A stretch of DNA of 40,976 bases from Bacteroidia bacterium (GCA_047614525.1 JBLHEU010000003.1:1-40976), one strand, 5' to 3'. Counted from the first letter of the stretch, positions 2,191 through 32,566 are shown. Translations and numbers: made by a program. The notes: generated by a model not told the origin, from the letters alone.

Positions 2191-2211
2191 GTACTCTTAA
2201 CGCACGGCATT

Positions 2212-3456
2212 TTGATAAAGTATAACAAACGAAAAATCCTTAATGATCCTGTTTACGGGTTCATAACCGTGCCTTACGAATCGGTATTCGATGTGATTGA
2301 ACATCCGTTTTTCCAACGCCTCAGAAGGATTAAGCAACTTGGATTAACTCATCTTGTTTACCCTGGAGCTTTGCACACAAGGTTTCATCATACAATTGGA
2401 GCTGTACACCTTATGGGATTGGCCGTTAAAGAACTGCGAGACAAGGGCTACGAGATATCAGACAAAGAAGCGGAAGGTGTAACGTTGGCCATCCTTTTAC
2501 ATGATATTGGGCACGGACCTTTTTCTCATGCGTTAGAACACAGCATAGTTTCTGGCGTGTCGCATGAAGATATTTCAGCCTTATTTATGGAGTATCTGAA
2601 TAAAGAGTTTAATGGAAAGCTAGATACAGCTATCGCGATTTTTAATGATAATTATCCGAAGCGTTTTCTGCACCAATTAGTAAGCAGTCAGCTAGATATA
2701 GATAGGCTAGATTACCTCAGACGCGATAGTTTTTTTACCGGAGTTTCTGAAGGTATTGTAGCTTCAGACCGCATAATTAAAATGCTGCATGTAGTTAACG
2801 ATGAGTTGGCAGTTGAAAGCAAAGGCATTTATTCGATTGAGAAATTTATAGTTGCACGAAGGATTATGTACTGGCAGGTTTATTTGCATAAAACAGTTCT
2901 TTCGGCTGAATACCTTCTGATTTATATTTTAAAGCGTGCAAATGAATTGGCTAAGCAAGGAACAAGTTTGTTTGCAACACCTGCTTTTCGCACTTTTTTA
3001 GATAGAAAAGTAACGTTAGAGGACTTTAAGAATGAATCAGACTTACTGACTCAATTTGCGGAACTAGATGACTTTGATGTACTTACTTCGGTGAAGGTTT
3101 GGAAGAACCACCCAGACGTAGTGCTGTCTAAACTTTCGGGGTTTCTAGTAGATAGAAAGCTGTTGAAAATAAAGATGTATTCTGAAGAAGTTTCACCCAT
3201 AAAACTAGCGGAATTAAGAACGGAATTGGCATATCAATGGAAAATTACCGAAGAAGATGCTAGCTATTTTGTGTTCACCGATTCTATTGCAAACAGTGCG
3301 TATAATTTGAAGCAGGACCGGATTAATATCTTGTTCAAAAACGGAGAAGTTAAGGACCTAACCGAGGCCGCAGACACCCTTAGTTTGAGTGTACTTTCAA
3401 AACCCGTAGAAAAACACTTTCTTTGCTTTCCAGCATTGCTGACCAACCAACTCTAA
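2212..3456 (+). CDS. HD-domain phosphohydrolase (SAMHD1/dNTPase-like)
   Basis: DPVYG, QRLRRIKQLG, YPGALHTRFHH, LLHDIGHGPFSH, DIDRLDYL and YWQVYLHK motifs. Confidence 0.92.
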   Translation: MIKYNKRKILNDPVYGFITVPYESVFDVIEHPFFQRLRRIKQLGLTHLVYPGALHTRFHHTIGAVHLMGLAVKELRDKGYEISDKEAEGVTLAILLHDIGHGPFSHALEHSIVSGVSHEDISALFMEYLNKEFNGKLDTAIAIFNDNYPKRFLHQLVSSQLDIDRLDYLRRDSFFTGVSEGIVASDRIIKMLHVVNDELAVESKGIYSIEKFIVARRIMYWQVYLHKTVLSAEYLLIYILKRANELAKQGTSLFATPAFRTFLDRKVTLEDFKNESDLLTQFAELDDFDVLTSVKVWKNHPDVVLSKLSGFLVDRKLLKIKMYSEEVSPIKLAELRTELAYQWKITEEDASYFVFTDSIANSAYNLKQDRINILFKNGEVKDLTEAADTLSLSVLSKPVEKHFLCFPALLTNQL

Positions 3457-3519
3457 AACACACCCGGCCATAGGTATATTTCTACTTTAACGAGGTTCAT
3501 TAAATTTATTTTAAAGCGG

Positions 3520-4542
3520 ATGATTTTGACCGCAGGTGTTATTGCTGATTTAATTGGCGGAAGTGTTGACGGAGACCCACAGGTACAAGTAAGTACCGTG
3601 AGTCCTATCGAAAGCGGTTCTGCGGGTTCATTGTCGTTTCTGGCAAACCCTAAATACAACGAGTTTCTTGAAACTACGGATGCATCTGTGGTTATTGTTA
3701 AAACAGATTTTAAGGTCGAATCAACCACTAGGGCAACGCTAATACGTGTTGAAGACCCATACTCTTGCTTTGCAATCTTACTTCAGAAGTATGATGAGAT
3801 GAATGGTCCAAAAGCTGGGATTCATTCTTCTTCTGTAATCTCTGAAAGTGCTACGATTGGAAAGAATGTTTCTATTGGTGCTGGTGCTGTGATTGAAGAT
3901 GACGTGGTTGTTGGAGATGATGCAATTATTGGCGCAAACGTTGTTTTAGAAAGAAAGGTGAAGGTGGGAAACGGATGCAAGTTGCATTCGGGCTCTCGTG
4001 TTTTGCACGATTGTGTCATAGGTAATAATTGCACGCTTCATGCTGGCGTTACAATAGGAAGTGACGGTTTTGGATTTGCTCCATCAGACACTGAATACAG
4101 CAAAATTCCGCAGGTTGGTAACGTTATTCTTGAGGATAAAGTTGAAGTAGGGGCAAACTCAACCATAGATAGAGCTACTATGGGTTCAACTATTATTAGA
4201 ACAGGAGTTAAACTCGATAACCTCATCCAAATTGCACACAACGTAGAAATTGGAGAACATACTGTAATTGCTGCTCAAACTGGAATTGCAGGTTCAACTA
4301 AAATCGGGAAACGCTGCATGATTGGCGGCCAAGTGGGAATCATCGGCCATCTGCTGATTGGAGATAATGTGAAAATTGCCGCGCAAAGTGGAGTAGGAAG
4401 TAACCTGAAAGACGGGGTAATTGTACAGGGTTCACCAGCTTTTGAGGTTGGTAGTTACCGTAGGTCATATGTCTCGTTTAGGCGATTGCCAGAAACACTC
4501 CGAAGAATTGAACAACAACTAAAAGAACTGACCAAGGGATGA
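3520..4542 (+). CDS. lpxD: UDP-3-O-(3-hydroxymyristoyl)glucosamine N-acyltransferase
   Basis: SFLANPKY, hexapeptide repeats, GSDGFGF, TIDRA and [10 protein letters not shown] motifs. Confidence 0.97.
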
Positions 4543-5930
4543 GCGTAAAACAGAAGACCTTAAATCAGGCGATTTCCATTTCTGGGGTTGGTTTACACAC
4601 TGGAGAAATGACAAAAGTTGTTGTGAATCCTTCAGATGAAAGAGGAATCGTTTTCATAAGAACCGACCTTGAAAATGCTGAGATAAAAGCCGCTGTGGCA
4701 AATATTACTAGCACAAAAAGAGGAACTACAATCGGTTATGGTGAAGCTACGGTTAGCACCATAGAACATTGGATGGCATCGCTGGCAGCAGTCGGTGTAA
4801 CTAATGCTAGAATTGAGATTGACGGTCCTGAGTGTCCAATTCTTGATGGTAGTTCAAAGGAAATTACCGATGCTATTAATAAAGTTGGAGTTAATGAGTT
4901 AGAAGCGGATTTTGATATTCTAAACGTTGATTCAAACCTTGAGTATAAGGACGAAGAAACAGGTGCAGAGTACTTGATCATTCCTTCAGACAAACCTCGG
5001 TTTACCGTAATGATTGATTACAATAGCAAGGCTTTGCCGCCACAGCACGCGGTGCTAACAGACCTTGCAGATTTTGAAGCTGAGATTGCTTCCTGCAGAA
5101 CGTTTTGTTTTTTACATGAATTAGAACTGCTTCTAGAGCATAACCTTATTAAGGGTGGTGGTTTAGATAATGCCGTTGTTTTTGTTGAACATCCTATGGA
5201 TGATGCGAAGCAAGCTAAATTGGCTAAGCAGTTTAACCAATCAGATATTAAAGCAAGTGTACTTGGTACGCTTAATAATACCGAGTTGCGTTTTCCAAAT
5301 GAACCAGCAAAGCATAAACTCCTTGACTTAATTGGGGATATGGCGTTGATTGGTGCGCAATTAAATGGGCATGTAATTGCCACTAAACCCGGTCATGGTT
5401 CAAATTCTCGTTTTGGGATGTTTATAGCCGGATTGGTTAAGGATAACAAAAAGGGAAAGGCACCTAAAATTGATTTTAATGCGCAGCCAGTACTTGATGT
5501 AAACGGCATTATGGCAATGTTGCCTCACAGACCACCTTTCTTGTTTGTCGACAAGATTTATGAACTGACGCCTACGATGGTTGTGGGTGTGAAAAATGTG
5601 ACCATGAATGAGTATTTCTTTGAGGGTCACTTTCCTGGAGCGCCTGTTATGCCAGGTGTAATACAGGTAGAGGCTATGGCTCAGGTTGGAGGGATTCTAG
5701 TTCTGAATACCGTTCCAGACCCAGAGAATTACCTCACTTATTTAATGAAAATAGATGGCGTTAAGTTTCGTAAAATGGTAATGCCAGGCGATACAATCGT
5801 TTTTAAACTTGAGCTAGTCAGCCCAATAAGGCGAGGTATCTGCCATATGAAAGGACACGCTTACGTAGGGAATGAATCCGTGATGGAAGCCGAGATGATG
5901 GCCCAAATAGTAAAAAGAGACACCGAATGA
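4539..5930 (+). CDS. lpxC-fabZ: Bifunctional LpxC deacetylase / FabZ dehydratase
   Basis: LpxC motifs GVGLHTG, STIEH, PILDGS and HKLLDLIGD, fused to FabZ motifs [11 protein letters not shown] and [11 protein letters not shown]. The fusion is typical of Bacteroidota. Confidence 0.96.
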
Positions 5931-6727
5931 ACCAACCCTTATCTTTTGTACACCCCCAGGCAAAAATTGCCGACAATGTGGTAATCGAACCTTTTGTTAC
6001 CATTCATAAGAATGTTGAAATAGGACAAGGTTGCTGGATAGGTTCGAACGTTACCATTATGGAAGGCGCTAGAATTGGCAAGAATTGCAGGATTTTTCCT
6101 GGAGCAGTAATTTCTGCCGTCCCACAGGATTTGAAATTTGATGGAGAAGAATCTTTCGTTGAAATAGGTGATGACGTTACGATTCGTGAGTGCGTTACCA
6201 TTAACAGGGGAACAAAAGCAAGCGGTAAGACTGTGATTGGTAACAAGTGCTTAATCATGGCTTATGTACATGTTGCTCATGACTGTATTCTTGGCGAAGG
6301 AGTTATACTTGCCAATGCATGCACACTTGCTGGTCATATTATTATTGATGATTACGCTATTTTGGGCGGAATGTCTGCCCTGCATCAATTTGTTAGAATT
6401 GGAGCACACGCCATTGTTTCGGGAGGGGCATTGGTGGTAAAAGACGTGCCGCCATATTGCAAGGCTGCACGTTATCCGTTGAGTTACTCTGGTGTGAACA
6501 GCGTTGGCATGAAACGTAGAGGATTCTCAGTTGAAAAGGTTCGAGAAATCCAAGAAATATATCGTGTGCTCTTCTTGAAGCATTACAATGTAACTCAAGC
6601 CTTGTCGCATTTAGAAGCGGAATTTCTTGTAACTGATGAGCGTGATGAAATCATCAAATTCATTCGAGATTCGAAGCGCGGAATAATGAAAGGATATCAG
6701 TTTATGAACGGAAACGGATCTAAGTAA
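5927..6727 (+). CDS. lpxA: Acyl-ACP--UDP-N-acetylglucosamine O-acyltransferase
   Basis: PQDLKF, IRECVTINRGT, HVAHDC and HQFVRIG motifs; operon position. Confidence 0.97.
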   Translation: MNQPLSFVHPQAKIADNVVIEPFVTIHKNVEIGQGCWIGSNVTIMEGARIGKNCRIFPGAVISAVPQDLKFDGEESFVEIGDDVTIRECVTINRGTKASGKTVIGNKCLIMAYVHVAHDCILGEGVILANACTLAGHIIIDDYAILGGMSALHQFVRIGAHAIVSGGALVVKDVPPYCKAARYPLSYSGVNSVGMKRRGFSVEKVREIQEIYRVLFLKHYNVTQALSHLEAEFLVTDERDEIIKFIRDSKRGIMKGYQFMNGNGSK

Positions 6728-6729
6728 GT

Positions 6730-7362
6730 ATGTCTTCTTTGCCGCAGATTTCTTTGCGAAACGTAGGGAAACGGTATAATTATGAATGGATTTTTCGTGG
6801 AGTAACTCATACGTTTAAGGCAAATGAGCATACTGCTATTCTTGGTTCAAACGGTTCTGGGAAATCTACATTGCTCCAAGTTATTCTGGGCAGTACAGTT
6901 CACTCAGAAGGCGAAATATCTTACCAGTTAGATGGAAATAATTTTAATGCCGAAGAAACAGTTGGCAAGTTTTCATTGGCTACTCCTTACCTAGATATTA
7001 TTGAAGAATTTACACTGATGGAGATGTTAGAATTCCATCAAAAAATGATAGCCTTCCGAAACGGAATTGATCTAAAGGGTATTGTAGACCGTTTGTATCT
7101 ATCAGACGCTAAGGACAAAGCCATTAAGCACTTTTCCTCTGGAATGAAGCAACGTGTAAAGCTGGGTATAGCTCTGATGTCGGATACTCCATTTGTATTG
7201 CTTGATGAGCCAACTTCGAACCTTGACGCTATGGCAATAGACTGGTACAACCAATTGGTTGAAGAATTCAAAAACGGTAGGGTGATTATTGTTTGCTCAA
7301 ATGATCAGAAGGCCGAATTTTCATTTTGTTCTGAGCAATTAAACGTAGGGGATTTTAAATAA
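6730..7362 (+). CDS. ABC transporter ATP-binding protein (no permease in the window)
   Basis: Walker A GSNGSGKS, signature FSSGMKQR, Walker B LLDEP. Confidence 0.9.
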   Translation: MSSLPQISLRNVGKRYNYEWIFRGVTHTFKANEHTAILGSNGSGKSTLLQVILGSTVHSEGEISYQLDGNNFNAEETVGKFSLATPYLDIIEEFTLMEMLEFHQKMIAFRNGIDLKGIVDRLYLSDAKDKAIKHFSSGMKQRVKLGIALMSDTPFVLLDEPTSNLDAMAIDWYNQLVEEFKNGRVIIVCSNDQKAEFSFCSEQLNVGDFK

Positions 7363-7364
7363 TC

Positions 7365-7820
7365 CTAGCGCTTTTCGAAATTGAGTGAAGCGGAATTAAT
7401 ACAATAACGCAATCCGGTAGGTTGAGGGCCGTCTTCAAATACGTGACCCAAATGAGCATCACATCTGGCACAATGCACTTCATCTCTCATCATACCAAAA
7501 CTCATATCCGAAGTCTTTTCTACATTCTGCTTTAGAAAGCTGTAGTAACTAGGCCAGCCTGTGCCACTTTTGAACTTGGTTTTCGAATCAAACAACTCTA
7601 AGTCGCAGCATATACAGGAGTATGTGCCTTCAACTTTATTGTTCCAATAAGTGCCAGTAAATGCCCGTTCAGTTCCTGATTCGCGCGTAACGTAATACTG
7701 CTCCTCACTGAGCTTTTCTTTCCAGTATTTCTCAGGCTTGGTTATTTTCTGAACATCAGATTGTGCCGAAACAGAACCAAAAACCATCAAAAAACAAAAT
7801 GCAAATAAGTACTTCATCAT
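7365..7820 (-). CDS. msrB: Peptide-methionine (R)-S-oxide reductase with signal peptide
   Basis: GTERAF, CICC and CARC Zn ligands, SGTGWPS, HLGHVFEDGP and RYCINSASL; hydrophobic N-terminus. Confidence 0.95.
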   Translation of the reverse strand: MMKYLFAFCFLMVFGSVSAQSDVQKITKPEKYWKEKLSEEQYYVTRESGTERAFTGTYWNNKVEGTYSCICCDLELFDSKTKFKSGTGWPSYYSFLKQNVEKTSDMSFGMMRDEVHCARCDAHLGHVFEDGPQPTGLRYCINSASLNFEKR

Positions 7821-7942
7821 TGCTTAACACCAAGAGGGTGGCTATGTTTATAATTGAGGTTTTTTATAATCTCAATGAGTACTACATACTTTTTTGGCAC
7901 CTCATTTTAAGCTAGCTCAATACGGAAGAAAGAAGTATGTTA

Positions 7943-8590
7943 CTACTTTTTGCCCCCATTCAATTGTTCGAACGAAACAATTCGGTAGCCTTCTGGAATG
8001 GTCTGGTCAAAAAGATTGTCTTCTACTGCGAGGGTGATTTTAGTTGCCTTAGAAATGAGAACACCATCTTTGCTCGTTTCTATCATCAACAACGGAAACC
8101 CATCAAGCTTAGAAAAGAAATATCCCTCGAACTCAAAATCGTGCGACTTAAGTTTTGGAGTGTACCAAACTTCAATTGTCTTGTCTTTCAGAGATACTTG
8201 AGCCTTAGAACACGTGTAACCCTTAATTTTTTTCGACCCCTCAGTTAGCGTAATCTTCATACTACTATTATCATGTGCTAAAGATTCTTCAGAAAGTTTA
8301 CTCGCAATTTTAACCGATCCGCTTTGCATAGAATTGAGAAGCAACCCTTTTTTAGCATCTAAATCGTAAACCATTTTCAGGTCTACCATTTTGTTCACCA
8401 AAACCATAGACATCTTGTTGCCTTTGTAGGCATAGCTTAAGAAATCGCTATCGGCTTGATTTACGGTAGGGTCATCTCCTGTAATCTCAAACTCAACAAC
8501 AAAATTACTAACGGAAGTCTGTCCTTGTGCCACGGATGAGCAAAGCAAGAGTGTGAGAACTAGATACAGATAGGAAGGGGTCTTAAACAT
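7943..8590 (-). CDS. Exported DUF4412/GLPGLI-like protein
   Basis: Signal peptide; KKIKGYTCSKA, VWYTPKL and KLDGFPL resemble the GLPGLI/DUF4412 pattern. Confidence 0.65.
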   Translation of the reverse strand: MFKTPSYLYLVLTLLLCSSVAQGQTSVSNFVVEFEITGDDPTVNQADSDFLSYAYKGNKMSMVLVNKMVDLKMVYDLDAKKGLLLNSMQSGSVKIASKLSEESLAHDNSSMKITLTEGSKKIKGYTCSKAQVSLKDKTIEVWYTPKLKSHDFEFEGYFFSKLDGFPLLMIETSKDGVLISKATKITLAVEDNLFDQTIPEGYRIVSFEQLNGGKK

Positions 8591-8609
8591 GGTATTGAGA
8601 TTAAATGAG

Positions 8610-9176
8610 TTATTGTTTACCCAACATAGCTTTTTTCAAGTCGTCATCTGCTGGTTTATCTCCAAGCCAAATGCCGAACAACGCTTTCTTGAAATCCATG
8701 CCTTCAATAGTGCCTTCAAGCTTTCCATTCTTGTAAGACTCTACGCCTTTTCCAGGAACGTAAACAATATCAAATACGTTGCCTTCAACAATTTCACTCT
8801 TCTTAAACGTGTTTACAAAAACATCAATTTCAGATTTTAAAGGAGCGGTATTTCCGCCCGTGCTTGCTTCAAAGCCTTCCATAATAGCTTCGCTCATGTT
8901 CTCACTGCTAATCATGCCAGAAGTAATTTCAAGCTTAACTGCCATGGCTTCGTCAGCGTTTACCACCGCTTTTGCATCGTTAGATTTACTGGTGAGGTAC
9001 AACCCACCAACATACAGTTTAAAGAATAATTTCTTTCTAATTCCTCCACCGTTAAGGTCCACATTTGCGTCTCCAGCTTTTATACTTGCAGGTAGTGTGA
9101 CTCCATTAATGGTAACTTGAGCTTGGGTTGGAAGTGCCAAGGTTAATGCAATAATTGTGGTTAATAGTAATCTCAT
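8610..9176 (-). CDS. Chalcone-isomerase-like (CHI-fold) exported protein
   Basis: LNGGGIRKKLFFKLYVGGLYL and FKKALFGIWLGDKPADDDLKKAML motifs; signal peptide. Confidence 0.88.
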   Translation of the reverse strand: MRLLLTTIIALTLALPTQAQVTINGVTLPASIKAGDANVDLNGGGIRKKLFFKLYVGGLYLTSKSNDAKAVVNADEAMAVKLEITSGMISSENMSEAIMEGFEASTGGNTAPLKSEIDVFVNTFKKSEIVEGNVFDIVYVPGKGVESYKNGKLEGTIEGMDFKKALFGIWLGDKPADDDLKKAMLGKQ

Positions 9177-9346
9177 AATCTGGGTTTTAGATTGCGCTAA
9201 GATATGTGATAATCTAATTGCCTTTAGGCAAGAACAAAGCCAATTTGATTGTGAGAAAACAAGACAATTGTGTGCAATGTTTACATTGGTGAATGTGAAA
9301 TGTCTATCAGTAAATCATTGAATAACTTGCCTTCAAATTCAAGAAC

Positions 9347-10114
9347 ATGAAACAGCTAATCAATTCAACAATAGTCTTCGTCTTTCTACTTGTTACCAGT
9401 TCGTGCACGTATACAACGGGAGAAGGGCCTTTAGTTGAGAAAGAGTTTGCAAAAGATGCTTTTCGGGACGTTGAACTTGATGGCTCTTTTAATGTGAATA
9501 TCACCCAAGGCGCACAGCAAAACGTGGTCGTAAACGGACAAGAGAATATCATTGAGAAGCTTAAAATGGATGTGCTGGATGGCGTACTGTATCTAAGTCT
9601 AGAGCCCGGTAATTACATGAATTATGAACTTGAAGTGGACCTAACCATGCCTAGGTTGCAAACGGTGGTGTTATCTGGTTCTGGTGATATAAAGTTGGGC
9701 ACATTCGTGGGATTGGACGAATTAAAAATAAGTCTAGATGGGTCTGGAGATATTGAGTCGGAAGGCGTTCTGGAGGTTAACGGATCTGCAACTATTGATT
9801 TAGAAGGAAGTGGAGATATAGACCTAAGTCTTAAGGCCGAAAAGGTGATGGTGGATTTAGATGGTAGCGGAGATGTCGACCTAAATGGCACTTCTTCAAC
9901 TTTAAAAGCCATGTTAGACGGAAGCGGAGATATTAAAACATACAAGCTGCAATCGCTGCGTGCAGAAGTAGAATTAGAAGGTTCAGGAAATGTCAAGGTA
10001 TATGCTTCAAAAAGTTTGAAAGCATCTTTAAAGGGCTCAGGAGACATCCGTTATAGGGGCGAGCCAACAGTAGAGGCAAAAATTGATGGTTCGGGAACTA
10101 TTGAAGCAGATTAG
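9347..10114 (+). CDS. GIN-domain (DUF2807) lipoprotein
   Basis: Lipobox TSSC followed by many L(D/E)GSGD(I/V) beta-solenoid repeats and a C-terminal YRGEP. Confidence 0.88.
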   Translation: MKQLINSTIVFVFLLVTSSCTYTTGEGPLVEKEFAKDAFRDVELDGSFNVNITQGAQQNVVVNGQENIIEKLKMDVLDGVLYLSLEPGNYMNYELEVDLTMPRLQTVVLSGSGDIKLGTFVGLDELKISLDGSGDIESEGVLEVNGSATIDLEGSGDIDLSLKAEKVMVDLDGSGDVDLNGTSSTLKAMLDGSGDIKTYKLQSLRAEVELEGSGNVKVYASKSLKASLKGSGDIRYRGEPTVEAKIDGSGTIEAD

Positions 10115-10145
10115 AATCTATTTTTGCAGGCCTAAATAAAACACC

Positions 10146-10649
10146 ATGAGCGAGACAAAGAACCCAAGAGTATTTTTTGATGTAAGTATTGATCAGCAAC
10201 CAGCTGGTAGAATAGAGTTTGAGCTAAATGCTGATATCGTGCCTAAAACTGCCGAGAATTTCCGTGCATTATGCACAGGTGAAAAAGGCTTTGGTTACAA
10301 AGAGAGTTCTTTTCATAGAGTAATCCCCCAGTTTATGCTGCAAGGCGGTGACTTCACAAATCACAACGGAACAGGTGGAAAATCCATTTATGGCGAGAAG
10401 TTTGAAGACGAAAATTTTGATTTGAAGCATGAACAACCAGGATTGCTAAGCATGGCTAATGCGGGACCTGGAACAAATGGATCTCAATTCTTCATCACAA
10501 CCATTTCTTGTCCTTGGTTAGATGGAGCACACGTGGTTTTTGGAAGGGTAACCAAAGGATTAGACATAGTTGAAAAGATTGAACTTTGTGGCTCGCGCGC
10601 TGGCGCAACTTCAGTTCCTATTAAAATTGAAGATTGTGGTGAGCTCTAG
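10146..10649 (+). CDS. Cyclophilin-type peptidyl-prolyl cis-trans isomerase
   Basis: [48 protein letters not shown] and [10 protein letters not shown] motifs. TATTTTTG promoter element at 10119-10126. Confidence 0.97.
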
Positions 10650-10685
10650 AGCATAATCATCAAGTTATTGCAAACGATTTTTTGA

Positions 10686-10719
10686 TTAAGCCAATGAACT
10701 TCCGGGTTCATTGGCTTAA
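10686..10719. terminator. Hairpin / probable intrinsic terminator after the cyclophilin gene
   Basis: Perfect 14-bp arms: TTAAGCCAATGAAC-ttccgg-GTTCATTGGCTTAA. Confidence 0.7.
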
Positions 10720-10886
10720 ATTTTAATCAGCTTTTTGGCTAAACGCACATTGGGGACAGGTTCTTCAACAATGAAAAATAATGCTAATAAAAAGCTGGGG
10801 AAAAGGTTCATTCCTCGTTGCTAGGTAAACATTTCTTTGGTTTTGATTATATACCTTGTACGTATAAACCAATAAAATCAAGTTCA

Positions 10887-11300
10887 ATGTACTTAAGAGT
10901 TCTACTTGCATCGCTGGCCGGAACGGCCTGGAATTTCTTTGGCGGTTGGGTCATTTATGGCATGCTGCTCATGGATTATTATCAATCGCATACCATCGTT
11001 TATGACGGTCTGGCAAAGGAGGACCCAGATATGGTTTGGCTCATAATAAGTTGTTTTGCCCCGGCTCTGCTAATTGCAATTATGGAGGATAGAACGGGAA
11101 AATCAAGTCTTATTGGAGGAGCCATTACAGGCTTTACAATTGGATTTTTGCTTCAATTAACCTTTACCGGTAGCATGTTTGCTTTCTTTAATTTGCATGA
11201 TAGTACTGCTGTTTTAGCAGTAGATGTAGTTATTGGCGCATTGTATTATGCGGTTACTGGAGCTATTGCAGGAGGGATTCTTGGCTTTAAAAAAGCATAG
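10887..11300 (+). CDS. Four-TM membrane protein (DUF1761-like)
   Basis: Start moved to the ATG at 10887 (MYLRVLLAS). Four hydrophobic segments; FFGGWVIYG and GAITGF patterns. Confidence 0.65.
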   Translation: MYLRVLLASLAGTAWNFFGGWVIYGMLLMDYYQSHTIVYDGLAKEDPDMVWLIISCFAPALLIAIMEDRTGKSSLIGGAITGFTIGFLLQLTFTGSMFAFFNLHDSTAVLAVDVVIGALYYAVTGAIAGGILGFKKA

Positions 11301-11319
11301 TTTAAAATCCTTTACTACT

Positions 11320-11485
11320 GCTATTCAGAACATAAAACTTGCAATGGTAATTGGTGTGCTCTTTTTGTTTGGAGGAATTCAAATGGCTAGAGACTTTCCT
11401 GCCCCGCTATGGTTTGATGTTGTAGACATAGTACTTGCTTATATTTCAATGGGGTTTTTAGGTTGGAATCTTGAAGGAAGTATGC
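11320..11485 (+). pseudogene. C-terminal remnant of a small Bacteroidota membrane protein
   Basis: KLAMVIGVLFLFGGIQMARDFPAPLWFDVVDIVLAYISMGFLG reads like the last two TM helices of a common hypothetical family. The rest of ORF 11233..11562 overlaps the previous gene and a terminator. Confidence 0.45.
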
Positions 11486-11514
11486 AAGTAAAACCAAAAT
11501 CATTTTCTGAATTG

Positions 11515-11545
11515 AGCCGTCATGCATGCGCATGGCGGCTTTTTG
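11515..11545 (+). terminator. Intrinsic terminator
   Basis: AGCCGTCATGC-atgc-GCATGGCGGCT followed by TTTT. Confidence 0.7.
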
Positions 11546-11643
11546 TTGCCAGTTACAATTGACCAAATCGACTTTTGAGGCTTGTGAAATCGTTTAACTT
11601 TCGTCTCGCAAATCAGACTAAAACCTAGTTAAATACATACAAT

Positions 11644-12609
11644 ATGAAAAAAATCTACTCTACTATTTTATCAGTATTAACGGTTGGAGCGGTTCTTACC
11701 GCTTCTGCACAACAACAGCCTACTAATGGCGATTTCGAAAGTTGGGATGGAAACGGTGATCCAACTGGCTGGAGCGACATGAGAACCGGTGTCCTTTGTA
11801 GTTTTTGCGGTTTTGGTTCTTCACAACGAATTTTTGAGGATAACGGTGTAGTTCACAACGGTAACGCTAGTGTTAGAATTGAAACAACCGAGGTGTTCGG
11901 TAGCATCATAAATGGTACGATGACTACCGGCCAAATTCATGCACCGTCTACTACGCCTTCTGAGGGGTTTGCTCAAACACATGTAGGCCAGGCAGACTTT
12001 AACCATCCAATGACTGATATGCCAGATAGTTTGGTGTTTTACGCACAGTATAACGAAACTGGCACGTCAGATTCTGCTTCCGTGGCAGTAACGCTTCACG
12101 ACAACTCGGATTACAGAGACCCGAACGGAGATGACAGTCAGGTAATTGCTTATGTGAGAAAACGATTTCAAACTGCAGGTATTGGTAACTGGGTTAGAAT
12201 TTCTGCGCCATTTGATTACTCTGGAGGCTCTTCTAATCCTATCGCTTACGCCTTAATGACTTTCACATCAAGCTATCAGCCAGGTGCTGGAAGTAGCTCT
12301 GCGAAACTTTGGGTAGATGATTTCGAATTCATATACAACCCAGACCTAACTGGAGTTGAGGAATTGGCTGATGTTGTTGGGGTTTATCCGAACCCAACAA
12401 ATGATGGTAGGATTACCATCAACCTTGGATACGATAACCTTACTGGTTCTGCTACTGTGCTAAACATGATGGGACAAACTGTTGGTTTGTTCAACTTCTC
12501 AAATGAGAATAAGATTAACGTAGAAATCAACCAGCCTACTGGAATGTATTTCATCAATCTTCAAACAGAAAACGGAAGATCCACTACAGTGAGAGTAGTT
12601 AAGAGCTAA
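11644..12609 (+). CDS. T9SS type-A cargo protein with a PCMD-like (putative carbohydrate metabolism) domain
   Basis: Signal peptide; NGDFESW, PDSLVFY and SKLWVDDFEFIY motifs; C-terminal sorting domain VYPNPTNDG...GMYFINL...RVVK. Confidence 0.8.
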   Translation: MKKIYSTILSVLTVGAVLTASAQQQPTNGDFESWDGNGDPTGWSDMRTGVLCSFCGFGSSQRIFEDNGVVHNGNASVRIETTEVFGSIINGTMTTGQIHAPSTTPSEGFAQTHVGQADFNHPMTDMPDSLVFYAQYNETGTSDSASVAVTLHDNSDYRDPNGDDSQVIAYVRKRFQTAGIGNWVRISAPFDYSGGSSNPIAYALMTFTSSYQPGAGSSSAKLWVDDFEFIYNPDLTGVEELADVVGVYPNPTNDGRITINLGYDNLTGSATVLNMMGQTVGLFNFSNENKINVEINQPTGMYFINLQTENGRSTTVRVVKS

Positions 12610-12625
12610 CTAGTTCTTTTCTATG

Positions 12626-14854: not shown

Positions 14855-15310
14855 TTACCCTTCTTCCTTGTCATCCGCCTGCTTGGCTAAACGGTACAGA
14901 TAAGAACTGTAAATGTTACGCTTTGCAAACCGAACCTGCTTGTCTGAATTATGGAATTTGAGGAACACATTTTTGGGTACTCCAAAAAACTCGTAGGTAT
15001 TTCCATCTAAGTAGGAAATTTCCAATAAAACCCCTTTATGTACGTAGTCGGCAATACCACCTTTAGTGGTTGTAAGCTCAAAAGCCGGTGCATTGGTAAC
15101 CTTTGTCTCTGGCGAGATGCTGATTAGAAATTTGTAACCATCAATTATTTTCCGGCTCATAACCTCTGCCTCAGCTGCTTTTTCATCTCCCTCCATAAAC
15201 TTATCAGGGTGCCATTCTTTTACCAGATTACGGTAACTGGTCTTTAACTCCTTAAGAGTTGATGTGTCTTCTGTTCCGAAAATTTTTCTGTACTCACCAA
15301 TGCGCTTCAT
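14855..15310 (-). CDS. J-domain + KTSC-domain protein
   Basis: Start moved to 15310 (MKRIGEYRK), with TACTTTTG on the minus strand at 15339-15332. J domain ELKTSYRNLVKEWHPDKF; KTSC-like LEISYLDGNTYEFFGVPKNVF. Confidence 0.85.
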   Translation of the reverse strand: MKRIGEYRKIFGTEDTSTLKELKTSYRNLVKEWHPDKFMEGDEKAAEAEVMSRKIIDGYKFLISISPETKVTNAPAFELTTTKGGIADYVHKGVLLEISYLDGNTYEFFGVPKNVFLKFHNSDKQVRFAKRNIYSSYLYRLAKQADDKEEG

Positions 15311-15594
15311 GTGTCCGTTTTTTAGGGCGCGCAAAAGTACCTATAGATTTCTTGAGTTTACACGTTTTACTTTTAGGTACTCGAACTACTTAAAATCACA
15401 AAGCTTGCGTGCTATTTCTAGCCCCTATTTCTTGTTGGTATTGTAGGTGGTTTTTTATCCTGGAGCCCTTAATACCTATATCATTAAAGAGTACTCAAAT
15501 CCTGAAAAGGTGTCGAAGTCGTTAACAGTAGTAATGGCATAACACAAAAACACCGAGGTGCCTTATACCAGAAGTAAAAGCAACTATGTTGATC

Positions 15595-17382
15595 TTAGAA
15601 ACTATACTTCCCCTGTTTAACCATGTATTTGGTTATGTCTCGTCTTAGTTCCTTAGGGTTGATGTTGTAGCTCTTAATAAGCTTACGAACGATGAAGTTT
15701 ACTTTGCGCTTTTCGCCATCAGAAGCAAAGCTTGAAATAGCATCCTTAGCTGTTTTACGAACGCGTTCTAACGATTCGTACAGGTAAACCTGCATCATAG
15801 CTCGCTGAATTTCTAGCTTTTCTTTATCGCCACCCATTGTTTCAAGCTTGCGCACTTTAAGAACAGCAGAATCGCACACAAAGGCATCCGCCAAAATATC
15901 GGCAAGGTTCATCACAATTTCTTGCTCATCAACCATCTTCTTACCAAGCTTCTTACCAGCAGTGCTAGAAATGTATAGGAATACATCTTTTAACGCCTGA
16001 ACGATTCTTGCTTCTTCAGAAGCACCCGTTTTTGTTCCAGAAAAGATGGACTTTATAACCCTGCTTTGCACGTCTTTACCAGCACCAATCAGGTCAATTT
16101 CTTTGGTTTTAAGGGCGCGCTTGGTCAACTCAGCAACCGAAAGCATTCGGTTAATCTCGTTGGTTCCTTCATAGATTCTGGTAATCCGAGCATCGCGGTA
16201 ACCCATTTCAATTCCGGTCTCAGCAGAATACCCCATTCCTCCAAATATTTGGAGGGTTTCATCAATTACGTAATCAAGATTTTCTGAGCCCTTTACCTTC
16301 AGAATGGCACATTCTATGGCGTATTCTCGAATAGATTCAAGCTTCGATTCTTGAACTTCCATTCCGCCCTTTTGCAGTTCTTCTCGTTTAAGGTCAATGT
16401 TTCGGCCAATTCTCCAAATGCCTGCATCTACACAAAACACGCGCGAAGCCATTTCTCCAAGCTTGTGTTGCATAGCACCAAACTCAACAATTCGAGTATC
16501 AAACTGCTTACGCTCGGTTGCATACTCAATGGCTTGGTTAATGGCAAATTTGCAACCACCATTTGTACCAGCGGCAAGCTTAATTCTTCCTGTATTAAGA
16601 ATATTGAGCGCCATGGCAAAACCACCTTGTCGTTCTCCTAATAGATTTTCTACTGGAATTGGAGTGTTCTCAAAAAACACTTGTACCGTAGATGAACCTT
16701 TAATACCAAGCTTTTTCTCTTCGGCTCCAATCGTTATGCCGCCAAATCCTTTCTCAACAATAAATGCCGTAAGCTTATCGTCATCATCAATCTTAGCAAA
16801 AACAACAAAGATGTCTGCAAAACCACCGTTGGTAATCCACATTTTCTGACCATTCATCAGGTAATGCGTTCCTGCTTCGTTAAGCACACATTTTGTTTTG
16901 CCCGAGTTGGCATCTGAGCCGGCAGTTGGTTCTGTAAGACAATAACTCGCCTTTAGTTTGGCAGATGCTACTCCTGGCAAATACTTAGCCTTTTGTTCTT
17001 TGGTTCCGTAATACACAATTGGGAGAGAGCCAATAGAAGTGTGCGCACCTATTGTAGTGGCAAATGAAAAGCCCTGAGAAATCATTTCAGAGAAAATTAA
17101 CCCTGTATTGAAATCAAGAGCCATTCCACCATGCTCTTCGCTAATGGAAATACCACAAAGGCCTAATTCTGCTGATTTTTCTAGTAGCGAAACAATTTCT
17201 GCCTGATGCTTGGAAGCTTCAAGTTCATAACCGTTTTTCTTCATTGGCTCCTGAATTTCCTGAATACAGAAATCACGAACCATTTCGCCAATCATTTTCT
17301 GTTCTTCAGTAAATTCTTCATTGATGAAAATATCTTGTGGATTACCTTCTTCTATCAGAAATGTACCGCCTTTGAGTGTCAT
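15595..17382 (-). CDS. Acyl-CoA dehydrogenase (long FadE/VLCAD-like)
   Basis: Start moved to 17382 (MTLKGGTFL), with TACTTTTG on the minus strand at 17407-17400. Motifs YCLTEPTAGSD, NGQKMWITNG, KLGIKGS, ERKQF, FGGMGY and RIYEGTNEINR. Confidence 0.95.
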   Translation of the reverse strand: MTLKGGTFLIEEGNPQDIFINEEFTEEQKMIGEMVRDFCIQEIQEPMKKNGYELEASKHQAEIVSLLEKSAELGLCGISISEEHGGMALDFNTGLIFSEMISQGFSFATTIGAHTSIGSLPIVYYGTKEQKAKYLPGVASAKLKASYCLTEPTAGSDANSGKTKCVLNEAGTHYLMNGQKMWITNGGFADIFVVFAKIDDDDKLTAFIVEKGFGGITIGAEEKKLGIKGSSTVQVFFENTPIPVENLLGERQGGFAMALNILNTGRIKLAAGTNGGCKFAINQAIEYATERKQFDTRIVEFGAMQHKLGEMASRVFCVDAGIWRIGRNIDLKREELQKGGMEVQESKLESIREYAIECAILKVKGSENLDYVIDETLQIFGGMGYSAETGIEMGYRDARITRIYEGTNEINRMLSVAELTKRALKTKEIDLIGAGKDVQSRVIKSIFSGTKTGASEEARIVQALKDVFLYISSTAGKKLGKKMVDEQEIVMNLADILADAFVCDSAVLKVRKLETMGGDKEKLEIQRAMMQVYLYESLERVRKTAKDAISSFASDGEKRKVNFIVRKLIKSYNINPKELRRDITKYMVKQGKYSF

Positions 17383-17416
17383 GTTGCGCTTATTTGATAC
17401 AAAAGTAATTAAAAAG

Positions 17417-17430
17417 CAATGCGTGCATTG
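17417..17430. promoter_or_regulatory. Palindromic candidate operator between the divergent ACAD and GNAT genes
   Basis: CAATGC-GT-GCATTG; a related CAATGT-TT-ACATTG lies at 9275-9288. Confidence 0.4.
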
Positions 17431-17498
17431 TAAATTATGATTCAGTTGTTTTGTCATATATCAACATTCAATTATTGAGTGTTTTGTTACTTCGTACT

Positions 17499-18854
17499 AT
17501 GAGTTCAGCAACAGACATTCCAACTTTAGAAGAGTTAAGAGACGTTTTTGATAAGCGCAGACCCTATTTTCATTTAAGCAAAGGCCGAACGGAAGAGGGG
17601 TTATTCAAGTTTGACGTCAATGAATCTTTGGTGGCTTCTGAGGATTCTTTTGAAGAGGACTTGCTGCTGATTTCGTTTCCGATTGCATTCATGGATAATA
17701 TTGCTCCGGTACTGCATCATTTTGGTTTGAATACCGATAAAGAGAACTTCCTAGAGCAATGCCGAGAAGTTATCGCGGTAGCAGAAAACCACCAGAACGA
17801 AAAGGGTGGAGGGAAGATGAGTTTCCAGAGTTTGTTCTACAACATTCCAGAGTCTATTCAATCGGTGAATTACGATGCCGTAATTGTGCTGTCCATTCAT
17901 GTTTTAGATAAGAAAGAAGAAGAGCGCGACTATAGAATGGTCGGGTATATTCACGCCAATGAGTTCGATTTTGCACCTTATGAAGATGAAACAAAGATTG
18001 AGAAAGGCTATTACTACAATATGCTTAGGGTTACCGAGCATTCAGAAAATGGCGTAAAAATCTACCGCAGGAAGAAGATATTCTCTTTGATGTTTTCCAT
18101 TCTGCATCATTTGGTTTACCAAAATGGTGTCAATTTCTGCTTTGCTTGTATGGGTAAAGAGAACAAGAGTATTAAAGAGGCCTTGCACAGAAATACACTA
18201 ATGCATGATGAGTATTACGAGCGTTTGCCGTTTACCATGTACTCTAAGGTGAACAGACTTTACGGCAAAAAGAAGCACTACGAAACGCTGGTAGATATTA
18301 CGCATGACGAAGCTAGAATGCGCGAATACTACACCCAGATGCATGCTAAAATGAAGAAGTATCTGTTTTACAATCACCTCAACTTTGAAGATTTCCAGAA
18401 GTTGATGCTAAATATGAAGGAGTATTCTCCAACAAGTGGGGTTTATGCTCATTTTGATGATGCTGGTAACATGCTTACCGCCAGTGGTGCAATGAACTGG
18501 GGAGAGTTCCTCACGTTTCAAATTGTAAACCCAAAAGGGATTTTCATTCTAGCTCAGAAGTCTGGCATAATGAAGCACTTCTTTAAACCATCAATGGGTA
18601 TTGGAAAACCAGAGCATTATAAGAAGCTTTTGAAAGGCTTGTGCTACAAATACCATAAAGAGGCTGGGGTAGGTGTTACCGTTATTTCTACTTCAGAAGG
18701 AGACGAATACAAGGATATTTACAAGAGTTTGCTTGATGATGAATATGCCTATTTCATTATCTGTAACGATAAAGAAAAGCTTCAGCAATTCAAGAAGCGT
18801 TCTGAGAGCCCAGATGGTCATCCGATGCTTTTCCTTGATCAGCCGATTATTTAG
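17499..18854 (+). CDS. Putative GNAT-fold N-acyltransferase, HLS1-like
   Basis: Probable ATG at 17499. GNAT-like beta4/motif A (YYYNMLRV...YRRKKIFSLM) and motif B (FCFACMGKENKS); the C-terminal half recalls HLS1 by eye. Confidence 0.55.
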   Translation: MSSATDIPTLEELRDVFDKRRPYFHLSKGRTEEGLFKFDVNESLVASEDSFEEDLLLISFPIAFMDNIAPVLHHFGLNTDKENFLEQCREVIAVAENHQNEKGGGKMSFQSLFYNIPESIQSVNYDAVIVLSIHVLDKKEEERDYRMVGYIHANEFDFAPYEDETKIEKGYYYNMLRVTEHSENGVKIYRRKKIFSLMFSILHHLVYQNGVNFCFACMGKENKSIKEALHRNTLMHDEYYERLPFTMYSKVNRLYGKKKHYETLVDITHDEARMREYYTQMHAKMKKYLFYNHLNFEDFQKLMLNMKEYSPTSGVYAHFDDAGNMLTASGAMNWGEFLTFQIVNPKGIFILAQKSGIMKHFFKPSMGIGKPEHYKKLLKGLCYKYHKEAGVGVTVISTSEGDEYKDIYKSLLDDEYAYFIICNDKEKLQQFKKRSESPDGHPMLFLDQPII

Positions 18855-18893: not shown

Positions 18894-19316
18894 CTACTGA
18901 ATGTACAATTTCTTAATCCTCTTCTTCGGACCAGGGCAAAACTGGGTGTGGCAACTCATGCATTGGTCAACCATTTGGTTAAAGTTGAATACTGAGCTTG
19001 AATCAGCGGATTCTAACTCCTTAATTGAGTTGATATAAGCCTCGGCAAAAGCCTCAAAAACGGGTCCGTTTACTGTTGGGTCGGTTGGTATTGCAGAATG
19101 AATGTCTTGATATTTCTTAAGGCCAGTTAACGGCTTTCCATCAACTACAAGCTGCTTCAAACTATCCGATTCTTCAAACATATCTCGCATGAGCAAAGCC
19201 AGTTCAGAATCTCCGTTTGGGTTAATAGGGTGCTTCTTAATTTCGGTTGTTTCAGTCTTGCACCCCAAAATCAACCCGAGACTAAACAAGCTAATGATGA
19301 CTAATCTACTTCCCAT
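18894..19316 (-). CDS. Monoheme c-type cytochrome lipoprotein (cytochrome c'-like layout)
   Basis: Lipobox ILGC; helical body (SELALLMRDM); single CXXCH (CMSCH) near the C-terminus, followed by CPGP. Confidence 0.7.
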   Translation of the reverse strand: MGSRLVIISLFSLGLILGCKTETTEIKKHPINPNGDSELALLMRDMFEESDSLKQLVVDGKPLTGLKKYQDIHSAIPTDPTVNGPVFEAFAEAYINSIKELESADSSSVFNFNQMVDQCMSCHTQFCPGPKKRIKKLYIQ

Positions 19317-30726: not shown

Positions 30727-30900
30727 GTCAGATTTGCTTTATCCAAGGTTATTTTTTACGCTAATCTACTTCAGTCAAACTTCATAACAAATCGTTAGAA
30801 TTCTGTAATAAACTTGGTGGCGTATTTCATTAATTCGCAAACAGAATTAGTAATTAGGAGTACAGTTATTTTTGTTGGTAAACTCTCAAGGCCGAATACA

Positions 30901-31560
30901 GTGAAAGCTCAAGCATTCAGTTTCTTATTCCTTTTGATGTTTCAGGTTGGGCAAGCTCAGTCAGCAGACTTTCAATTTGTATTTGGGTCTAAGGCTCTTA
31001 AGATAGATAGTAGCTATGTAGTAAGCCAGACTCAAATATCCATTGAAACCATTCGGTTTTACGTAAGTGGGGTAGCGCTTTACAAGGGTGGCTCTTTAGT
31101 CTGGAAAGAAGCCGAAAGCTACCATCTTATTGATGCATTAAAAACAGAGTCATTACGTATAGCAATACCTGAGGTTGATGCAGATAAAATGGTATTCCTA
31201 ATTGGAACCGATAGCCTAACCAATGTATCTGGTGCAATGGGCGGAGATTTGGATCCAAGCAAAGGCATGTATTGGGCTTGGAACAGCGGTTACATCAACT
31301 TCAAACTAGAAGGAACAAGCTCAGTTTGCGATACGAGGAACAACGCTTTTCAATTTCATTTAGGTGGATATGCTTATCCTAATGCAACGGTGCAATCCGT
31401 TGAATTGGAACGTACATCAAACACAATTCTTGTAGATGTAAAAGCTTTTTTAGAAGGGGTTGATTTGGCAAAGCATAACACAGTTATGTCGCCTGGACAA
31501 GAGGCTGTTACGCTTGCCAAAAGGACAGCAACTATCTTTAGAATGAAGAATGAAAAATAG
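30901..31560 (+). CDS. mbnP: MbnP-family copper-binding protein
   Basis: Probable GTG start at 30901 with a signal peptide; RFYVS, YHLID, GDLDPSKGMYWAWNSGYINFKLEG (WxW) and FHLGGY motifs. Confidence 0.85.
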   Translation: MKAQAFSFLFLLMFQVGQAQSADFQFVFGSKALKIDSSYVVSQTQISIETIRFYVSGVALYKGGSLVWKEAESYHLIDALKTESLRIAIPEVDADKMVFLIGTDSLTNVSGAMGGDLDPSKGMYWAWNSGYINFKLEGTSSVCDTRNNAFQFHLGGYAYPNATVQSVELERTSNTILVDVKAFLEGVDLAKHNTVMSPGQEAVTLAKRTATIFRMKNEK

Positions 31561-32566
31561 CATTGCGGCTTTCATTCTTTTGAGTTTTGGTCTGATGGCC
31601 GCAACTGTGCCATCTTTGACTAAAGTGGGGTTAGAATATCCTGAAAGCTGGCCAGAACCAGTTTATGATTTCATTAAAAGTCCACTTACTAAAGAAGGAA
31701 TTGCTCTGGGAAGAAAGCTGTTCTACGACCCAATACTCTCCGCGGATAGTACCATATCTTGTAGTAATTGTCATTTATCGTTTACTGCTTTTACCCATGT
31801 AGACCATGATTTAAGCCATGGGATAAGAGACAGCATTGGCACGCGTAATTCTGCAGCTTTAATGAATTTGGCTTGGAGCAAGAAGTTGATGTGGGATGGC
31901 GCAGTCAACCATATAGACATGCAGGCTTTGGCGCCCATTACCCATCCAGCAGAGATGGGCGAGGATTTGAATAATGTGCTTAAGAAGCTTCAACGAACTC
32001 ATACTTATCCAAGTTTATTTCAAATTGTATTTGGCGATAGCATGATTACAGGAGAACACTTGTTAAAAGCGCTTTCTCAGTTTCAATTAACGTTAGTTTC
32101 GGCTAATTCTAAATATGATAAGATGAAACGGGGAGAGGTCAGCTATTCTGAACAGGAGGAGAGTGGTTATGAATTGTATAAGGCCAATTGTAACACATGC
32201 CATCAAGAGCCATTGTTTACCAACGGAGAGTTTGAGAATACAGGCTTACAAGTTGATTCTACCTTGAATGACTATGGAAGAATGCTCATCACCAAAAACC
32301 CAAAAGATTCATTGCTATTTAAGGTTCCAACCTTGAGAAATATTGAGTTCTCATATCCTTACATGCATGATGGGCGGTTTAAGACGCTTAGACAAGTGCT
32401 AAATCATTACTCAGAAGACATATCATCATCCCAAACATTGGCATACGAACTTGAAAATGGCATTCCCTTAACCAGTAATGAGAAGGTTGACTTGACTGCT
32501 TTTTTACTCACACTTACAGACAAAGAATTCTTATTCAACCCAGAATTCTCTTTTCCTAGAAATTGA
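31550..32566 (+). CDS. mbnH: Di-heme cytochrome c peroxidase/MauG family enzyme, MbnH-like
   Basis: LGRKLFYDPILS, CSNCH, RNS...N, MWDG, CNTCH, FKVPTLRN and PYMHDGRF motifs; overlaps mbnP. Confidence 0.85.
   Translation: MKNSIAAFILLSFGLMAATVPSLTKVGLEYPESWPEPVYDFIKSPLTKEGIALGRKLFYDPILSADSTISCSNCHLSFTAFTHVDHDLSHGIRDSIGTRNSAALMNLAWSKKLMWDGAVNHIDMQALAPITHPAEMGEDLNNVLKKLQRTHTYPSLFQIVFGDSMITGEHLLKALSQFQLTLVSANSKYDKMKRGEVSYSEQEESGYELYKANCNTCHQEPLFTNGEFENTGLQVDSTLNDYGRMLITKNPKDSLLFKVPTLRNIEFSYPYMHDGRFKTLRQVLNHYSEDISSSQTLAYELENGIPLTSNEKVDLTAFLLTLTDKEFLFNPEFSFPRN

Follow-up and report, generated by a model that had tools for sequence, protein, structure and literature searches.

A Bacteroidota protein family with a predicted N-myristoyltransferase-like fold, a candidate N-acyltransferase of sphingolipid-type metabolism

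The 40,976-nucleotide stretch of DNA analyzed here (the window) comes from a Bacteroidia bacterium (GCA_047614525.1 JBLHEU010000003.1:1-40976) and carries, at positions 17499 to 18854 on the plus strand, a gene whose 451-amino-acid product belongs to a Bacteroidota family that has no name and is predicted to have a tandem-GNAT, N-myristoyltransferase (NMT)-like fold. The label X451 is used for this protein and its homologues, which are typically ∼430 to 460 amino acids in length. The open reading frame (ORF) spans positions 17451 to 18854 and would encode 467 amino acids if begun at TTG; the ATG at 17499 was favored as the start, as this codon aligns across the closest loci and the DNA 5′ of it diverges. 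The gene ends with a TAG stop codon (18852 to 18854), and the protein sequence has neither a signal peptide nor a hydrophobic N terminus. Divergent from X451, on the minus strand at 15595 to 17382, lies a gene for a FadE-type acyl-CoA dehydrogenase (ACAD) of 595 amino acids, whose ORF covers 15595 to 17457 and whose likeliest start is the ATG at 17382 (MTLKGG...). The two ATG codons are separated by exactly 116 bp, and this gap contains a 14-bp palindrome, CAATGC-GT-GCATTG (17417 to 17430), ∼35 bp upstream of the ACAD start codon. An earlier interpretation of the window, referred to here as the sequence-only reading, had described a 451-amino-acid ORF about 116 bp from a stand-alone, divergent ACAD gene with a palindrome between the two, and this description proved accurate. 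The X451 motifs that it quoted were likewise all present and colinear, namely GGGKMSF (residues 103 to 109), RMVGYI (146 to 151), MLRV (175 to 178), YRRKKI (189 to 194), FACMGKENKS (215 to 224), a 38-residue block running from GIGKPEHYKK to GDEY (367 to 404), and SPDGHPMLFLD (437 to 447), with the protein ending four residues after D447.

A word-seeded search with X451 identified 67 homologues (E value, ≤1e−74; 37 to 100% identity), none with a precomputed Pfam domain and, where named at all, called "hypothetical protein". The organisms, where given, were Flavobacteriales, Chitinophagales, and other Bacteroidota metagenome-assembled genomes (MAGs), the taxonomic exception being one partial record labelled Granulosicoccus sp. 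In a genome collection, 104 of 134 candidate stretches encoded an X451 relative, and the phylum or order, where named, was always Bacteroidota. Judged by these 67 homologues, which extend down to 37% identity, and by 80 genomic loci, X451 is a real gene and lies far beyond what would be expected of a chance ORF. An exhaustive profile search of 1.84 billion cluster representatives (E value, ≤0.001) returned 37 proteins, 9 of 282 to 458 amino acids and 28 fragments of ≤207 amino acids, none of which matched in a further, unrelated region. Another profile search, seeded by words and run at an E value of ≤10, listed 79 proteins, all of the X451 family and none with a precomputed Pfam domain, with nothing between E values of 1e−105 and 10. 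Longer, fused forms of X451 were searched for and not found.

No Pfam family matched X451 at an E value of ≤1, including PF00583, NMT, NMT_C, Acetyltransf_9, and SCP2, and comparison with NCBIfam gave a single chance-level row. Sequence searches of the PDB, using the single sequence and whole-protein and half-protein profiles (alignments A1, A2, and A3), likewise gave chance-level rows only. By these comparisons the family appears small, soluble, and, in the data searched, confined to Bacteroidota, and would constitute a new family inside a known superfamily. Literature searches found no description of it, although word searches cannot find a family by sequence; they also returned nothing relevant on a described bacterial NMT-like enzyme or a sulfonolipid N-acyltransferase.

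An AlphaFold2 model of X451, built with a 46-sequence alignment (A1), had a pLDDT of 87.9 and a pTM of 0.86. Foldseek comparison of this model with the PDB gave 213 matches (E value, ≤0.001). Among the 44 matches listed from ranks 1 to 50, 42 were NMTs, drawn from yeasts, Aspergillus, Plasmodium, and human (six or more species), and two were Eis-like tandem GNATs of Enterococcus faecalis (2hv2 and 2i00). The best NMT match, 1iyl_C, had an E value of 1.5e−10, TM-scores of 0.51 (query) and 0.59 (target), and 13% identity across 408 aligned columns. The NMT alignments as a group spanned 380 to 446 columns and covered both halves of X451, with TM-scores of 0.47 to 0.52 (query) and 0.49 to 0.67 (target) at 9 to 13% identity; the 2hv2 and 2i00 matches had E values of about 2e−9 to 6e−9 and TM-scores of 0.36 to 0.42.

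The N-terminal GNAT domain (residues 58 to 262; positions 17670 to 18284, plus strand) holds most of the invariant residues of the family and would be the acyl-CoA-binding, catalytic half. Modelled alone with alignment A2 (pLDDT, 80.9), it matched CoA-dependent GNATs with E values of 5e−5 to 1e−2 and probabilities of 0.9 to 1.0, among them the probable acetyltransferase 2eui, AAC(3) enzymes, GNA1, and SSAT. Look-alikes in the ESM Atlas that carry a family name were also GNATs (Acetyltransf_1 and Acetyltransf_9; score, 0.95). On the strength of these models X451 is very probably a GNAT-fold acyltransferase. The GNAT label given in the sequence-only reading was thus upheld by fold, in both the Foldseek and the ESM Atlas comparisons, and received no backing from sequence families. 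The C-terminal half (residues 263 to 451; positions 18285 to 18851, plus strand) forms a second alpha/beta domain followed by a tail, SPDGHPMLFLDQPII, whose end is constant in position among family members. An internal duplication was considered as the origin of the two halves and rejected, as hhalign detected no similarity between their sequences.

The invariant residues of the N-terminal half are E96, H98, G103, G105, F109, Q110, H152, N154, Y172, N174, R177, Y189, R190, M218, G219, and N222. Six of these fall within the loop ENHQNEKGGGKMSFQS (residues 96 to 111; positions 17784 to 17831, plus strand), which lies between the first helices and the sheet and follows the pattern E-x-H...GGGK..FQ. 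Its pLDDT was 72 for residues 91 to 100 and 61 for residues 101 to 110, and fell below 50 in the domain-only model. Because the loop is strongly conserved and yet modelled with low confidence, it could act as a mobile lid that binds the acceptor and corresponds to the alpha1-alpha2 loop of GNATs and the Ab-loop of NMT, both of which are described as substrate lids (PMC7048800). The second conserved feature, and the most striking one, is the end of the protein. In 77 of 78 full-length members the C terminus is in register, the last eight residues reading [hydrophobic]-F/Y-x-D/E/G-x-P-x-x, and the sole exception (L024) is an artefact of a masked run of N. N termini, by comparison, differ in length by tens of residues. 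The tail of X451 is also confidently ordered in the model (pLDDT of 92 for residues 441 to 450). In NMT, the C-terminal carboxylate serves as the catalytic base, and its role has been probed by C-terminal shortening (PMC7048800 and PMC4964394).

Gene context was assessed in the best 80 loci of the 104 with a relative, together with the window (81 in total). The 731 ORFs of these loci and of the window region were clustered, representatives were annotated with Pfam and NCBIfam, and three genes on each side of X451 were tabulated; clades were taken from a quick IQ-TREE maximum-likelihood tree of the 78 full-length members. The sequence-only reading had proposed such a neighborhood survey as a check, and repeated links to lipid and acyl-CoA genes were indeed found.

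In 19 of the 81 loci, an alpha-oxoamine synthase (AOS) gene lies directly upstream of X451 and in the same direction, with gaps of −4 to 168 bp. For every one of these 19 genes, the best and only NCBIfam match at an E value of ≤1e−115 was serine palmitoyltransferase (SPT; NF047600), at 486 to 501 bits, which is ∼115 bits above the BioF and KBL models. When one representative was compared with the PDB, the Sphingobacterium SPT was nearest (387 bits), and cysteate-C-fatty acyltransferase scored 233 bits, so that a sulfonolipid-type, cysteate-fatty-acyltransferase identity for the upstream AOS is less likely. The SPT-linked loci occupy two separate parts of the tree, comprising 17 of the members of a 20-member clade and, in the other half, L022 and L023. 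A lipid kinase gene of the YegS/DAG-kinase type precedes the SPT-like gene in five loci, and its product presumably belongs to the same kinase family as the dihydrosphingosine kinase of Porphyromonas gingivalis. The P. gingivalis enzyme is described as resembling human SphK1 (PMC9045371).

A neutral ceramidase gene (PF04734) was found no more than three genes away in 15 of the 81 loci, again from two clades: L028, in which it directly adjoins X451 in divergent orientation, and a clade marked by an upstream dprA gene, which also keeps CoA-transferase subunits and a DUF4442 hot-dog protein. Further lipid genes near X451 encode PAP2 (three loci), START (two), 4HBT_2 thioesterase (two), and polyketide synthase (PKS) KS-AT (four) proteins. 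In L069 (positions 5989 to 12622, plus strand), an X451 paralogue heads a co-directional run consisting of a 132-amino-acid ORF, an SDR gene, a generic AOS gene, an SDR/ketoreductase gene, a PPTase gene, and a gene for a FabD-like acyltransferase, an arrangement suggestive of a cluster for amino-lipid biosynthesis. Because genes for SPT and for ceramidase are uncommon in any genome, chance does not readily explain their presence beside the X451 family in two lineages each, although this constitutes an association and not proof.

Three MAGs have two X451 loci each (L018 and L041; L064 and L069; L020 and L021), the MAG of L069 thus also holding an SPT-linked copy (L064). The differing contexts within the first two pairs suggest paralogues with diverged roles. 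L020 and L021 may be strain variants, because a downstream ORF cluster is common to both. The PKS-type KS-AT ORFs lie near tetR-X451 in the Flavobacteriales TetR clade, one to three genes downstream in L009, L012, and L016 and at 10861 to 13332 in L010. Two other neighbors were considered and set aside: an ORF beside the AOS gene of L006, taken at first for a lipid kinase, encodes a Usp protein, and a 275-amino-acid ORF downstream of X451 in five loci is lipoprotein-like, of unknown family, and offers no functional lead.

A third recurrent arrangement involves regulation. A TetR-family gene lies directly upstream of X451, co-directionally and with gaps of −31 to 78 bp, in 11 of the 81 loci, which form sister clades. 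In seven of the 11 (L009, L010, L011, L014, L015, L019, and L079) an inverted repeat, GGAGTGA-ACGC-TCACTC(C), lies within ∼10 nucleotides upstream of the TetR start codon and is probably an autoregulatory operator. It differs from the palindrome of the window. The latter escaped a general repeat scan, which returned a weak 11-nucleotide pair alone, the 6+2+6 palindrome being below its size setting; it occurs once in the 41-kb window and, taken singly, is not beyond chance. Across all eight loci of the window clade, however, it is invariant (with GT or AT at the center), and the flanking intergenic DNA is poorly conserved. The form CAATGC-AT-GCATTG also occurs in L018, from a Chitinophagales MAG with an X451 of only 50% identity, and again precedes an ACAD gene, at a distance of ∼31 bp; positions 727 to 7332 of this locus hold, in order, an acyl-CoA synthetase gene, two ACAD genes, the palindrome, tetR, and the X451 homologue. 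This layout may be ancestral, and the window arrangement may have arisen from it by loss or relocation of the TetR gene in the window clade. The window palindrome is a probable operator of a fatty-acid-degradation-type regulator, and since it adjoins the ACAD start in both lineages, its control may extend to the ACAD promoter only.

The ACAD gene itself is a less constant neighbor. It is directly upstream of and divergent from X451 in eight of the 81 loci (seven and the window), all within the window clade, whose members are at least 84% identical. Outside this clade (≤63% identity), ACAD genes were nearby in L018 alone, with the TetR gene between them and X451. Synteny therefore led to rejection of the ACAD as a conserved partner, and the conserved two-gene module put forward in the sequence-only reading was not supported. 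The product carries the Pfam domains Acyl-CoA_dh_N, Acyl-CoA_dh_M, Acyl-CoA_dh_1, and PF21263 and reaches 635.2 bits against the NCBIfam FadE equivalog NF058590, above the cut-off of 600. By score it would be an ordinary FadE, and the special desaturating role assigned to it earlier found no support. A fatty-acid hydroxylase gene (PF04116) stands beside the ACAD gene in three window-clade loci (L001, L005, and L007); at that place the window has a gene (14855 to 15334, minus strand) for a small protein joining a DnaJ J-domain to a KTSC domain.

Taken together, the predicted fold and the contexts lead us to propose, at a probability of roughly 0.45, that X451 is an acyl-CoA-dependent N-acyltransferase of sphingolipid-type lipid metabolism. 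An amino-lipid acceptor is suggested because the gene context of the family is lipid-themed, and in the most likely reaction a long-chain acyl-CoA would serve to N-acylate a sphingoid base or the 3-keto precursor of such a base. The family may thus include a ceramide-synthase analogue, a new kind of bacterial ceramide-making enzyme. A metagenomic study has reported Spt-like genes without a nearby bCerS or CerR gene and raised the replacement of bCerS or CerR by nonhomologous proteins in many Spt-encoding lineages (PMC11334938). In the proposed mechanism, the N-terminal GNAT half would bind the acyl-CoA, with Y-R-R-K-K, which opens the helix that follows strand 4, replacing the customary pyrophosphate-binding loop. 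The acceptor pocket would be formed by the C-terminal half together with the mobile E-x-H...GGGK..FQ loop, and the position-fixed C terminus could return into the active site in the manner of the NMT catalytic carboxylate, a role drawn by analogy. The FadR-like TetR, the ACADs, and the recurring palindrome suggest that expression follows the supply of fatty acyl-CoA. In the window, where X451 has its conserved palindromic operator region in common with the divergent FadE-type ACAD, its expression would probably be tied to acyl-CoA availability in this way, making the ACAD a regulatory neighbor and not a dedicated pathway partner.

Several observations weigh against this proposal. The structural agreement with NMT, at TM-scores of 0.5 to 0.6 and root mean square deviations of 5 to 7 Å, indicates a common architecture and not a common active site, and by the model neither the chain length of the donor nor the acceptor can be read from the fold. 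No Pfam GNAT or NMT model matches even at an E value of ≤1. The canonical GNAT pyrophosphate-binding motif, Q/R-x-x-G-x-G/A after strand 4, is absent from its expected place, the helix there beginning with Y-R-R-K-K-I-F and no glycines. Although SPT is their best family, the SPT-like genes fall under the NF047600 cut-off (∼495 versus 640 bits), and the AOS genes of L006 and L069, at ∼295 bits, are level with BioF and KBL, could not be assigned to SPT, and were therefore excluded from the count of 19. The FadR match of the TetR proteins, to a regulator of the Bacillus type, is the best in NCBIfam but weak (44 to 47 bits against a cut-off of 200). Context is heterogeneous, with dprA upstream in 18 loci, and ∼3 of ∼12 lineages (e.g., L020-L026/L032, L041, and L029/L038/L070) lack lipid genes in the vicinity; genes for SPT, ceramidase, and TetR are missing from the window. 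Synteny is also largely inherited within clades, so the independent observations are few, two for SPT and two for ceramidase, and the quick tree that separates the clades carries long-branch warnings. Finally, bCerS homologues have been reported in Bacteroidota, and a second ceramide synthase is therefore not obviously needed.

Other functions were weighed against the same evidence. One is that X451 acylates a protein N terminus or a lysine, as an analogue of NMT or Eis. Among the matches listed, the nearest solved structures are protein NMTs followed by the Eis-like tandem GNATs, the C terminus is fixed as in NMT, and the ESM Atlas neighbors include the Eis-type family Acetyltransf_9. Fold similarity does not fix the acceptor, however, and within three genes on each side across the 81 loci no conserved candidate substrate protein adjoins the gene; the recurrent neighbors are lipid enzymes (SPT-like, ceramidase, lipid kinase, and PAP2) and not proteins with a common N terminus. 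A protein or peptide substrate is considered unlikely.

An equally improbable function is that of a small-molecule acetyltransferase of the Eis, AAC, or SSAT type, engaged in detoxification or metabolite acetylation under a TetR-type sensor. An operon of tetR and X451 in which an inverted repeat marks the start of tetR has the classic layout of inducible resistance or detoxification genes, and the best matches of the N-terminal domain alone are acetyltransferases acting on aminoglycosides, polyamines, and sugar amines. Such matches are weak and generic for GNATs, though, and the whole protein fits NMT better (E value, 1e−10). This function would also leave the SPT-like and ceramidase links in four clades unexplained, and the best family match of the TetR proteins, if a weak one, points to fatty acids.

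Still less probable is the proposal of the sequence-only reading, in which X451 is a bacterial HOOKLESS1 (HLS1) orthologue working in a two-gene module: the ACAD would desaturate an acyl-CoA, and X451 would move the enoyl group to an amine or protein. The plan described for HLS1, a GNAT plus a C-terminal domain with one pocket and a buried, tag-intolerant C terminus, does mirror that of X451 (PMC11923405). The divergent 116-bp arrangement with its palindrome is kept in all eight window-clade loci, and L018 again groups ACADs, palindrome, and X451, with a TetR gene between. The colinear motifs listed in the sequence-only reading would also speak for kinship with HLS1. Against it stand the confinement of direct ACAD adjacency to that one clade, an ACAD whose score fits ordinary beta-oxidation, a palindrome that may serve the ACAD promoter alone, and the lack of a PF00583 match. 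Moreover, the profile searches reached family members only and no plant protein, although high scores are needed in databases of such size and the libraries do not state whether they include plant proteins. A further point is that the C-terminal domain of HLS1 is reported to be specific to land plants (PMC11923405).

A yet more ambitious combination, in which the family is both a second, nonhomologous bacterial ceramide synthase, built on the NMT plan with a catalytic C-terminal carboxylate, and a distant relative of HLS1, must be regarded as doubtful when all its parts are taken together. Least credible of the functions considered is an aminoacyl-tRNA-dependent transferase (a tandem GNAT of the FemABX or MprF-synthase type) acting on a lipid or cell-wall precursor, since, although an MprF-like reaction would suit the lipid context, no Fem or MprF structure was among the 44 whole-protein and 38 domain matches listed, the domain matches listed included no enzyme that uses aminoacyl-tRNA, and the N-terminal half resembles CoA-dependent enzymes. 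FemABX proteins do, like X451, comprise two GNAT domains (PMC4964394).

The remainder of the window resembles an ordinary Flavobacteriales-type chromosome, with genes for LpxD, LpxC-FabZ, LpxA, HtpG, a CDF transporter, a Usp protein, and a P450. tRNA and Rfam scans of the window found no RNA gene, and a promoter and terminator scan based on the Bacteroidetes promoter consensus did not exceed shuffled sequences in its counts, with five promoter-like sites against 4.4 expected. Convergent with X451 at 18894 to 19316 (minus strand) is a 140-amino-acid ORF with a lipoprotein-like N terminus and a C-terminal CMSCH, a CxxCH motif of the haem-c type; it has no Pfam match and is kept in the window clade. 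A second, more divergent ACAD-like gene, in which Acyl-CoA_dh_1 and Acyl-CoA_dh_M only were detected, lies at 38037 to 39743 (plus strand), and the CAATGC-GT-GCATTG palindrome was not found 5′ of it. A run at 30814 to 32566 (plus strand) consists of an MbnP-family gene, a gene for a MauG-like di-haem cytochrome c peroxidase, and a gene for a YHYH-domain protein that bears a type IX secretion sorting tail.

Sphingolipid synthesis in bacteria has been mapped only in part, and X451, a soluble, NMT-like protein whose gene in some loci directly follows an Spt-like gene, offers a concrete candidate for the missing bCerS/CerR-type step in Bacteroidota of the Chitinophagales type. Were this so, the NMT architecture, taken as eukaryotic, would also exist in bacteria and serve lipid acceptors. 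A real resemblance to HLS1 would make the family a simple bacterial model in which to seek the substrates of HLS1-type enzymes, and ceramide synthesis and kinship with HLS1, if both hold, would point to a lipid or other small amine, and not a histone, as the HLS1 substrate. Should none of these hold, a new structured family that Pfam does not model would remain, as would a conserved operator motif of fatty-acid genes in Bacteroidota. The family is new in that neither Pfam nor NCBIfam has a model for it and no solved structure is related to it by sequence, and its architecture has so far been tied to eukaryotic NMT.

Four known systems invite comparison. The Eis-like tandem GNATs (E. faecalis EF1021-type; 2hv2 and 2i00) are bacterial, form the second group of structural matches, and have a further parallel in the Acetyltransf_9 neighbors of X451 in the ESM Atlas. 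They differ in their lower TM-scores, in the Pfam domains Acetyltransf_9 and SCP2, which X451 lacks, and in gene context. The likeness to HLS1 is one of description: its gross plan matches the X451 model and fixed C terminus. HLS1 has near its N terminus a GNAT domain matched by PF00583, which does not match X451, and a C-terminal domain conserved in, and reported specific to, land plants; its two domains form one large pocket, its C terminus is folded inside the protein, a C-terminal tag abolishes function, and its substrate is disputed (PMC11923405).

NMT shares with X451 two GNAT-type halves in one chain in a pseudo-twofold arrangement, which in NMT show very limited identity to each other (PMC4964394), and is the best structural match among those listed, over ∼400 columns. 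CaNMT is 451 amino acids long (PMC4964394), similar in size to X451. The C terminus of X451 is fixed in position, the C-terminal carboxylate of NMT is the catalytic base, and the mobile conserved loop of X451 would occupy the place of the Ab-loop. Unlike NMT, X451 matches neither Pfam NMT model at an E value of ≤1, aligns at 9 to 13% identity, and is bacterial, found only in Bacteroidota in the data searched, with a context pointing to lipid and not protein acceptors.

The functional parallel proposed here is with bCerS of Caulobacter (CC_1154/CCNA_01212), which has been described as a cytoplasmic acyltransferase, bound peripherally to the membrane (PMC11087976), and elsewhere as an N-acyltransferase (PMC11324152). 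No homology between the two was detected, the X451 profile search of 1.84 billion representatives having returned its own family only, so that the widespread bCerS family was not detected. They differ in layout, as bCerS is reported to be encoded in another operon than spt (PMC11324152), and the genes are described as not clustered in Bacteroidota (PMC11334938). What would unite them is the step itself: X451, too, is proposed to be a soluble cytoplasmic N-acyltransferase acting after Spt, and in 19 of 81 loci, from two clades, its gene directly follows an Spt-like gene.

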